Source: Escherichia coli (GTDB taxonomy: Bacteria > Pseudomonadota > Gammaproteobacteria > Enterobacterales > Enterobacteriaceae). Taken from it: a stretch of DNA of 27,671 bases. A model generated the notes under the pieces. The model was not told the origin of the DNA. It ran no database searches and saw only the letters and a program-made list of their open reading frames with translations. Both the position numbers and the translations under genes were made by a program. Shown here piece after piece: positions 26,747 to 27,671 of this stretch (positions within the stretch are counted from its first letter, which is position 1; every line of letters begins with the position of its first letter). Where the stretch lies: the NCBI RefSeq assembly GCF_003334315.1, contig NZ_QOWR01000062.1. One strand, 5' to 3'.

Positions 26747-27304
26747 GTGCCCACACTACGTTTCCCCTTCCATCTGGCGAATCATAATAAAGATGCTGCC
26801 ATCAATATATTGATTATATTTATAAGCATAGGGTCGATTATTTTTAATGTGAATTATTTCCATACAACTATAGTTAAAAATGGACAGATCATTAATCAAC
26901 CAACAAACGCATTTCAGTCTGATTTCAGCCTTGCCGCTTTATGGCGTAACGAAAATCATGCTGGGGTAAAAGATGCAAATCCCGTGGCAGTTAATCAGGA
27001 AACACCTAAGCTCTCTATAGCGCTTAATGGCATTGTACTCACATCGAATGATGAGACTTCTTTTGTCTTAATTAATGAGGGGAGCGAACAAAAGCGATAC
27101 TCCCTCAACGAAGCCCTTGAGTCAGCGCCGGGAACGTTTATTAGAAAAATAAATAAAACCAGCGTTGTGTTTGAAACTCACGGGCATTACGAAAAAGTAA
27201 CTCTCCATCCAGGGCTACCTGACATCATCAAGCAGCCTGATTCAGAAAGTCAAAATGTACTCGCTGATTATATTATCGCCACGCCTATACGTGATGGAGG
27301 GTAA
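26747..27304 (+). pseudogene. gspC: gspC (type II secretion protein C) truncated by an IS1 insertion
   Basis: ORF starts [29 protein letters not shown]... and ends after about 183 native codons, where the frame runs into the IS1 terminal repeat (..RDGG then stop, TAA supplied by GGTAATGAC). Intact E. coli GspC is 271 aa by my recollection. Confidence 0.8.
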
Positions 27305-27671
27305 TGACTCCAACTTATTGATAGTGTTTTATGTTCAGATAATGCCCGATGACTTTGTCATGCAGCTCCACCGATTTTGAGAACGACAGCGACTTCCGTC
27401 CCAGCCGTGCCAGGTGCTGCCTCAGATTCAGGTTATGCCGCTCAATTCGCTGCGTATATCGCTTGCTGATTACGTGCAGCTTTCCCTTCAGGCGGGATTC
27501 ATACAGCGGCCAGCCATCCGTCATCCATATCACCACGTCAAAGGGTGACAGCAGGCTCATAAGACGCCCCAGCGTCGCCATAGTGCGTTCACCGAATACG
27601 TGCGCAACAACCGTCTTCCGGAGCCTGTCATACGCGTAAAACAGCCAGCGCTGGCGCGATTTAGCCCCGAC
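27300..27671 (-). mobile_element. IS1 insertion sequence (partial; continues past the window end)
   Basis: Terminal inverted repeat GGTAATGACTCCAACTTATTGATAGTGTTTTATG at 27300 onward, followed by the insB C-terminal coding sequence on the minus strand. Confidence 0.92.
27315..27671 (-). CDS. insB: IS1 transposase InsB, C-terminal part (5' end beyond the window)
   Basis: Minus-strand translation ...[98 protein letters not shown]; frame is open to the window edge. Confidence 0.92.

Follow-up and report, generated by a model that had tools for sequence, protein, structure and literature searches.

Truncation of gspC by an IS1 element in a K-12-like Escherichia coli

The stretch of E. coli DNA analysed here (27,671 nucleotides, hereafter the window) ends within an IS1 element that interrupts gspC, the first gene of the type II secretion operon gspC-O. 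We consider it highly probable (roughly 93%) that an IS1A-like element, 768 bp long when complete, transposed into the chromosomal gspC of a K-12-like E. coli at nt 553/554 of the gene. The element lies between these two nucleotides with its IRR/insB end facing the 5' part of gspC, which places the transposase gene antisense to gspC, and translation of gspC ends at a TAA within the IRR, giving a product of 185 amino acids that has the membrane anchor and the HR domain but lacks the PDZ domain. Both components are textbook material (IS1 and a K-12-type gspC), and the event is an ordinary gene disruption at the level of a strain; IS1 knockouts of genes in AT-rich, H-NS-bound regions are routine. 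It carries little weight beyond strain bookkeeping, and it bears on no new mechanism or gene family and on no open question. The junction could nevertheless serve as a marker of one E. coli clone with a disrupted cryptic, chitinase-secreting type II secretion system (T2SS), and it adds one more case to a visible pattern, in which IS1 often targets the AT-rich, H-NS-bound gspA-gspC region and contigs of draft genomes often break there. The features of the window and the IS1 events used for comparison are listed in Table 1.

Table 1. Features of the window, differences from MG1655 and comparable IS1 events in other strains.
Feature	Position	Strand	Basis or remark
gspB, 139 aa, second gene of the divergent gspAB operon	24677..25096	-	ORF; K-12 gspB position
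gspA, 489 aa, divergent from gspC	25098..26567	-	ORF; K-12 annotation
gspA-gspC intergenic control region, 179 bp, 27-32% GC	26568..26746	.	composition; PMC5797941
Truncated gspC ORF	26747..27304	+	GTG start, 185 aa, TAA stop from IS1
Native gspC 5' part, nt 1-553	26747..27299	+	100% identity to K-12 MG1655; TIGR01713
GTGATGGAG, 9 bp adjoining the IS1 end	27291..27299	.	expected target-site duplication if the insertion was simple (inferred)
Partial IS1 (IS1A-like), 372 nt at the IRR end	27300..27671	-	cut by the window end
IS1 right inverted repeat (IRR), GGTAATGACTCCAACTTATTGAT	27300..27322	.	identity to annotated IS1 end
insB 3' part, C-terminal 118 codons of the InsAB' transposase; stop 27315-27317	27318..27671	-	NF033558; ORF list
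SNP in yrdA, nt 45 C>A	449		synonymous vs MG1655
SNP in rsmB, nt 786 G>A	7161		synonymous vs MG1655
SNP in rpsS, nt 201 T>C	21495		synonymous vs MG1655
IS1 in strain LH10-b-1	gspC nt 194		simple insertion
IS1 in strain SK0832	gspC nt 54		simple insertion
IS1 in strain XJ5.2	gspC nt 539		deletion from nt 539 to gspL
IS1 in strain AVS0662	-419 to -114		adjacent deletion
IS1 in strain TL012	gspA -919 to gspC 162		adjacent deletion

The start codon of the open reading frame at 26747 coincides with the annotated start of MG1655 gspC, a gene of 816 nt encoding 271 aa, which agrees with the intact length of about 271 aa given in the initial annotation of this DNA. Direct comparison with the MG1655 gene revealed a shared prefix of exactly 553 nt ending at 27299, which takes in 184 whole codons and one base of codon 185, and divergence from 27300 onwards. 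Past nt 553 K-12 reads AACAGATATACG..., whereas the window reads GGTAATGACTCCAACTTATTGATAG.... The same division emerged when 26747-27671 was compared by megablast with the complete E. coli genomes (5,426 in number): the first 553 bases were 100% identical to gspC of MG1655 and of many other strains, and the part after base 553 matched IS1 copies everywhere. The GspC equivalog model TIGR01713 recognized the gspC fragment with 180.8 bits (cutoff 101.6) over profile positions 2-187 of 259. The first two bases of IS1 convert codon 185 from GAA (Glu) to GGG (Gly), and a TAA at 27302-27304, inside the IS1 inverted repeat, ends gspC translation; the truncated GspC comprises 184 native residues and one Gly, 185 aa compared with 271 aa for the intact protein. 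The frame had initially been put at about 183 codons, close to the 185 codons plus stop found here. The statements that an IS1 inverted repeat at 27300 supplies the stop codon and that the C-terminal third of GspC is missing were both borne out.

The IS1 part of the junction could be identified with similar precision. The terminal inverted repeat begins at 27300 (GGTAATGACTCCAACTT...), and the IRR of IS1 is about 23 bp long. The 27-nt IS1 end at 27300-27326 occurs exactly and only once within the window, where 0 occurrences would be expected by chance. All 372 nt from 27300 to 27671 agree with the complete 768-bp IS1A-like element of strain LH10-b-1, a copy (locus L001) annotated as "IS1-like element IS1A family transposase". 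The NCBIfam model for the IS1 transposase, NF033558, matched 27318-27671 on the minus strand with 112.5 bits (cutoff 100) at profile positions 107-199 of 199; this match represents the C-terminal half of the transposase (the InsB part) and runs off the window end. Thus, the earlier reading of a minus-strand insB continuing to the end of the window holds, and the alignment proposed along with it gave identity to K-12 gspC up to nt 553 followed by 372/372 nt of IS1. IS1A-like elements are insertion sequences of E. coli and Shigella, and relative to the annotated 768-bp copy the inverted repeat and all 372 nt are identical, with no difference in the visible part. About half of the element lies within the window; insA, the site of the -1 programmed frameshift, the IRL and any target duplication would be located beyond its end. 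A naturally short gspC allele with a chance resemblance to IS1 was also considered and is ruled out by the 372/372 nt identity, the NF033558 score and the continuation of the K-12 gene.

Four contigs from independent Logan read-set assemblies encode the identical 185-aa product, and the DNA of two of them (ERR271230 and SRR3951468) carries the identical junction and ends 28 nt into IS1. Since the same junction occurs in independent read-set assemblies, it is genuine, and its carriers are one rare clone or a small number of clones. A 141-nt query covering the exact junction had no counterpart among the complete E. coli genomes, which numbered 5,426 and comprised K-12 as well; its sole full-length match was strain XJ5.2, in which a separate event took place at gspC nt 539. 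Exact scans with the upstream junction DNA also yielded 0 matches in JGI metagenome contigs and 0 in GTDB species representatives. The initial annotation had called the insertion strain-specific and absent from K-12. The latter agrees with the MG1655 annotation, which shows no IS1 at this locus, and the former with the complete genomes, the four independent Logan contigs with the identical product notwithstanding. The literature searched contained no paper linking IS1 with gspC at the nt 553/554 site, and neither run, ERR271230 or SRR3951468, appeared in any searchable paper.

It should be noted that the window is in all probability one whole contig of a draft assembly with a repeat at either end, the rrnD leader and IS1, and because of these boundaries the far end of IS1 is out of sight. 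Positions 1-110 lie inside the conserved rrn leader of a 16S rRNA gene (rrnD side), and yrdA follows at 405-959. Independent assemblies yielded contigs of nearly equal length (27,194 nt, and 27,0xx-27,4xx nt in other drafts with a broken gspC). The fact that the window looks like a whole contig with both ends determined by repeats (16S leader and IS1) might point to an assembly artefact, namely a chimeric join of gspC and IS1 at a repeat in a genome whose true gspC is intact. However, the junction is equal base for base in two separate sequencing runs, with the same product on two further Logan contigs, and the join coincides precisely with base 1 of the IS1 inverted repeat, where transposition, unlike a random chimera, would be expected to place it. 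Such an artefact is scarcely credible.

The remainder of the window places the event in a well-defined genomic background. Positions 1-27299 are collinear with MG1655 through yrdA, the alpha, spc and S10 ribosomal-protein operons and rpsJ-gspB-gspA-gspC, and this 27.3-kb collinearity puts gspC in its orthologous position, divergent from gspA-gspB and beside rpsJ. Only three differences from MG1655 were found in 27,299 nt, all of them synonymous (Table 1). Judged by its sequence, the region comes from a very close relative of K-12, yet not from K-12 itself. About 24.6 kb of this flank is also shared with many E. coli from animals and wastewater at 100.0% identity as rounded, and the bit scores of these matches were slightly above that of the K-12 match. 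The suggestion that the strain might be E. coli B or Shigella, both IS1-rich, found no support here: the flank is K-12-like, with three synonymous SNPs relative to MG1655. As to E. coli B in particular, the presence of the gspA-O cluster has been reported for it (PMC3032704), and none of the complete E. coli genomes searched (5,426) contained the junction.

To judge what the truncation removes, the domain organization of GspC has to be considered. Pfam models matched the intact K-12 protein at residues 76-152 (the T2SSC or HR domain) and, weakly, at residues 201-256 (PDZ), and the solved PDZ structures of PulC (5hj1) and EpsC (2i4s and 2i6v), together with the OutC chain of 6hcg, align with approximately residues 160-257. 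PF11356 is on record for the 185-aa product. Residues 1-184 of the window allele are those of K-12 GspC, so that the N-terminal membrane anchor and the periplasmic HR domain are present, whereas the C-terminal PDZ domain (approximately residues 160-257) is absent. Because the PDZ domain maps to about 160-257, a cut at residue 184 removes it. From the sequence, the truncated GspC is predicted to retain everything from the cytoplasmic tip through the TM helix and linker to the HR domain and to have lost essentially the whole PDZ domain. The allele is a disrupted copy (pseudogene) of the GspC family and not a complete member of it.

Whether such a protein is inactive is a somewhat more complex matter. 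The HR domain of GspC binds the secretin GspD (PMC3169554), and Vibrio cholerae EpsC without its PDZ domain loses secretion of only one known substrate (PMC12369372). Since PDZ-less EpsC secretes all known substrates but one, the truncation alone may not amount to a null allele, as far as a homologue can be taken as a guide. Thus, the earlier description of the event as an inactivation stands with regard to the gene, which is truncated, and is less certain with regard to function, as the TM and HR parts are kept and loss of function by truncation alone does not necessarily follow (PMC12369372).

When derepressed, a gspC-O cluster of the K-12 type secretes the chitinase ChiA. In K-12, the gspA-gspC intergenic region of 179 bp is bound by SlyA and repressed by H-NS, and gspC-O is activated by SlyA (PMC5797941); gspC-O is cryptic and H-NS-repressed in K-12 according to Francetic et al. 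(2000), as cited in PMC3032704. The initial annotation had described the operon as an already cryptic, H-NS-silenced secretion system, which is what these reports say of the K-12 gspC-O operon, divergent from gspAB (PMC5797941 and PMC3032704). The window shares with the K-12-type locus nt 1-553 of gspC, its start codon, the gspA-gspB neighbours and the position by the rpsJ (S10) operon. It differs in that the K-12-type gene runs to codon 271 and includes the PDZ domain, whereas the window allele ends at codon 185 without it. Pfam also identified GspA_C39-like and PG_binding_1 domains on the identical gspA of locus L004. In the K-12 annotation the start of gspD overlaps the 3' end of gspC, 17 nt before the gspC stop, an arrangement that suggests translational coupling of the two genes in K-12. 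IS1 is classically polar in both orientations. An early stop in gspC followed by 768 nt of untranslated IS1 would uncouple gspD from gspC translation, and, judging from IS1 biology, polarity would sharply lower transcription of gspD-O; the initial annotation had likewise expected polarity on gspD-O, and with good reason. The H-NS-silenced T2SS would then become genetically dead or at least be cut off from its promoter, and expression of gspD-O is likely to be lost even under derepressing conditions.

The opposite outcome was also considered. IS1 and IS5 are able to activate bgl by disrupting its silencing or by providing an outward promoter. In the same manner, the IS1 in gspC might break H-NS silencing or contribute an outward hybrid promoter and turn on gspD-O in the presence of a PDZ-less GspC. 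The locus is H-NS-silenced and AT-rich upstream, the truncated GspC retains its TM and HR domains, EpsC of V. cholerae works largely without its PDZ domain (PMC12369372), and IS1 has hit the gspA-gspC region repeatedly, all of which would be compatible with activation. On the other hand, the element lies 553 nt within gspC, outside the silenced promoter region, and belongs to a classically polar family, and at the visible junction, which is the upstream one, promoter-like matches are not enriched (5, compared with 3.4 ± 1.6 in shuffled sequence). The scan behind this comparison covered promoters and terminators in 26400-27671, and its counts were at chance level. We regard an activating insertion as very improbable. 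The same holds for its corollary, in which a derepressed T2SS would choose its substrates independently of the PDZ domain, with the GspC fragment docking on the secretin and any outward promoter coming from the far end of IS1. If this very improbable case were true, the repeated IS1 hits in the region, among them the pair at nt 539 and the one in the window at nt 553, would be a sign of selection and not of target preference alone.

Within the reading of a disruptive IS1 insertion, two forms of the event have to be weighed. IS1 insertions are flanked by target-site duplications of 8-9 bp, and duplications of 9 bp were found at the comparable IS1 copies in loci L001, L007, L008 and L010. In the window, a simple insertion would have duplicated the 9 bp GTGATGGAG and left gspC'-gspD-O intact behind the element, and we consider this form somewhat more likely than a rearrangement. 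The far junction predicted for a simple insertion consists of the IRL end ...GGCAGCATCACC, then GTGATGGAG, then AACAGATATACG. Protein fragments of GspC predicted for contigs that begin at such a junction would carry 0-9 IS1-derived codons with a 9-bp duplication, or 0-7 codons plus a TTG start with an 8-bp duplication. Exact-protein look-ups for these predicted fragments with IS1-derived residues, in both the 9-bp and the 8-bp versions, found none on record, and the predicted downstream junction DNA had 0 exact matches in metagenome contigs. GspC fragments starting at D183 and E185 were examined as candidates for the far junction and rejected, being ordinary contig ends without IS1 bases; their contigs begin at gspC nt 545-553, and many of them are metagenomic.

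These negative look-ups for the downstream junction lean mildly towards a deletion or rearrangement over a simple insertion. In that form of the event, IS1 would have mediated an adjacent deletion or rearrangement, its far end would be joined elsewhere, and gspC'-gspO would be partly or wholly missing or relocated. Adjacent deletions accompany three of the eight comparable IS1 events (XJ5.2, AVS0662 and TL012), and the junction predicted for a simple insertion was found neither as protein nor as DNA. However, absence from such look-ups is weak evidence because of contig-edge gene calls and incomplete sampling of the collections, and the other five of the eight comparable events are simple insertions. 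Thus, a deletion or rearrangement appears quite possible while falling short of even odds, and it would be a sub-variant of the IS1-insertion explanation without contradicting it.

Comparison with other genomes revealed that the disruption is not an isolated case. At least eight independent IS1 events could be identified within about 1.5 kb of the locus in complete genomes, a count that took in only the orientation of the window's IS1, so that the true number is higher. Five of them are simple insertions with duplications (gspC nt 194, 54 and 33, intergenic -61 and gspA -468), and three are associated with deletions (strains and positions in Table 1). The window shares with these disruptions the same element, the AT-rich target of 1.5 kb and the outcome of a gspC or gspA pseudogene, whereas the insertion points differ, and the nearest ones (XJ5.2 and P0009, both at nt 539) lie at a distance of 14 bp. 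P0009 is a protein from a draft genome that ends in ...IIATP followed by VMLPT, which corresponds to the IS1 IRL (G GTG ATG CTG CCA ACT) after gspC nt 539; its junction is at the same nucleotide as that of XJ5.2, in the opposite orientation. Hence at least three independent IS1 hits are located within gspC nt 539-553 (XJ5.2 at nt 539, P0009 at nt 539 and the window at nt 553), and this segment may be a local IS1 hot spot.

Some further observations were made on the target and on GspC fragments in the databases. The first six bases of GTGATGGAG, GTGATG, are the same as nt 2-7 of the IS1 IRL, and a simple insertion would create a far junction of CATCACC followed by GTGATG, a near-perfect palindrome. 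It is an old observation that IS1 hot spots can resemble the ends of IS1, and a target starting with GTGATG fits it. Many GspC fragments from draft genomes end at differing residues (104, 114, 120, 141, 159, 179 and others). Their contigs are about 27 kb long, a pattern suggesting that repeat elements often cause breaks inside gspC. In addition, a C-terminal fragment of E. coli GspC, EQIYGL...RTQ (P0016), is present in NCBI under the names of Pseudomonas aeruginosa and Klebsiella pneumoniae (accessions include MEI8890606.1 and WP_337162018.1), and these Pseudomonas and Klebsiella records probably represent contaminated or mislabelled assemblies.
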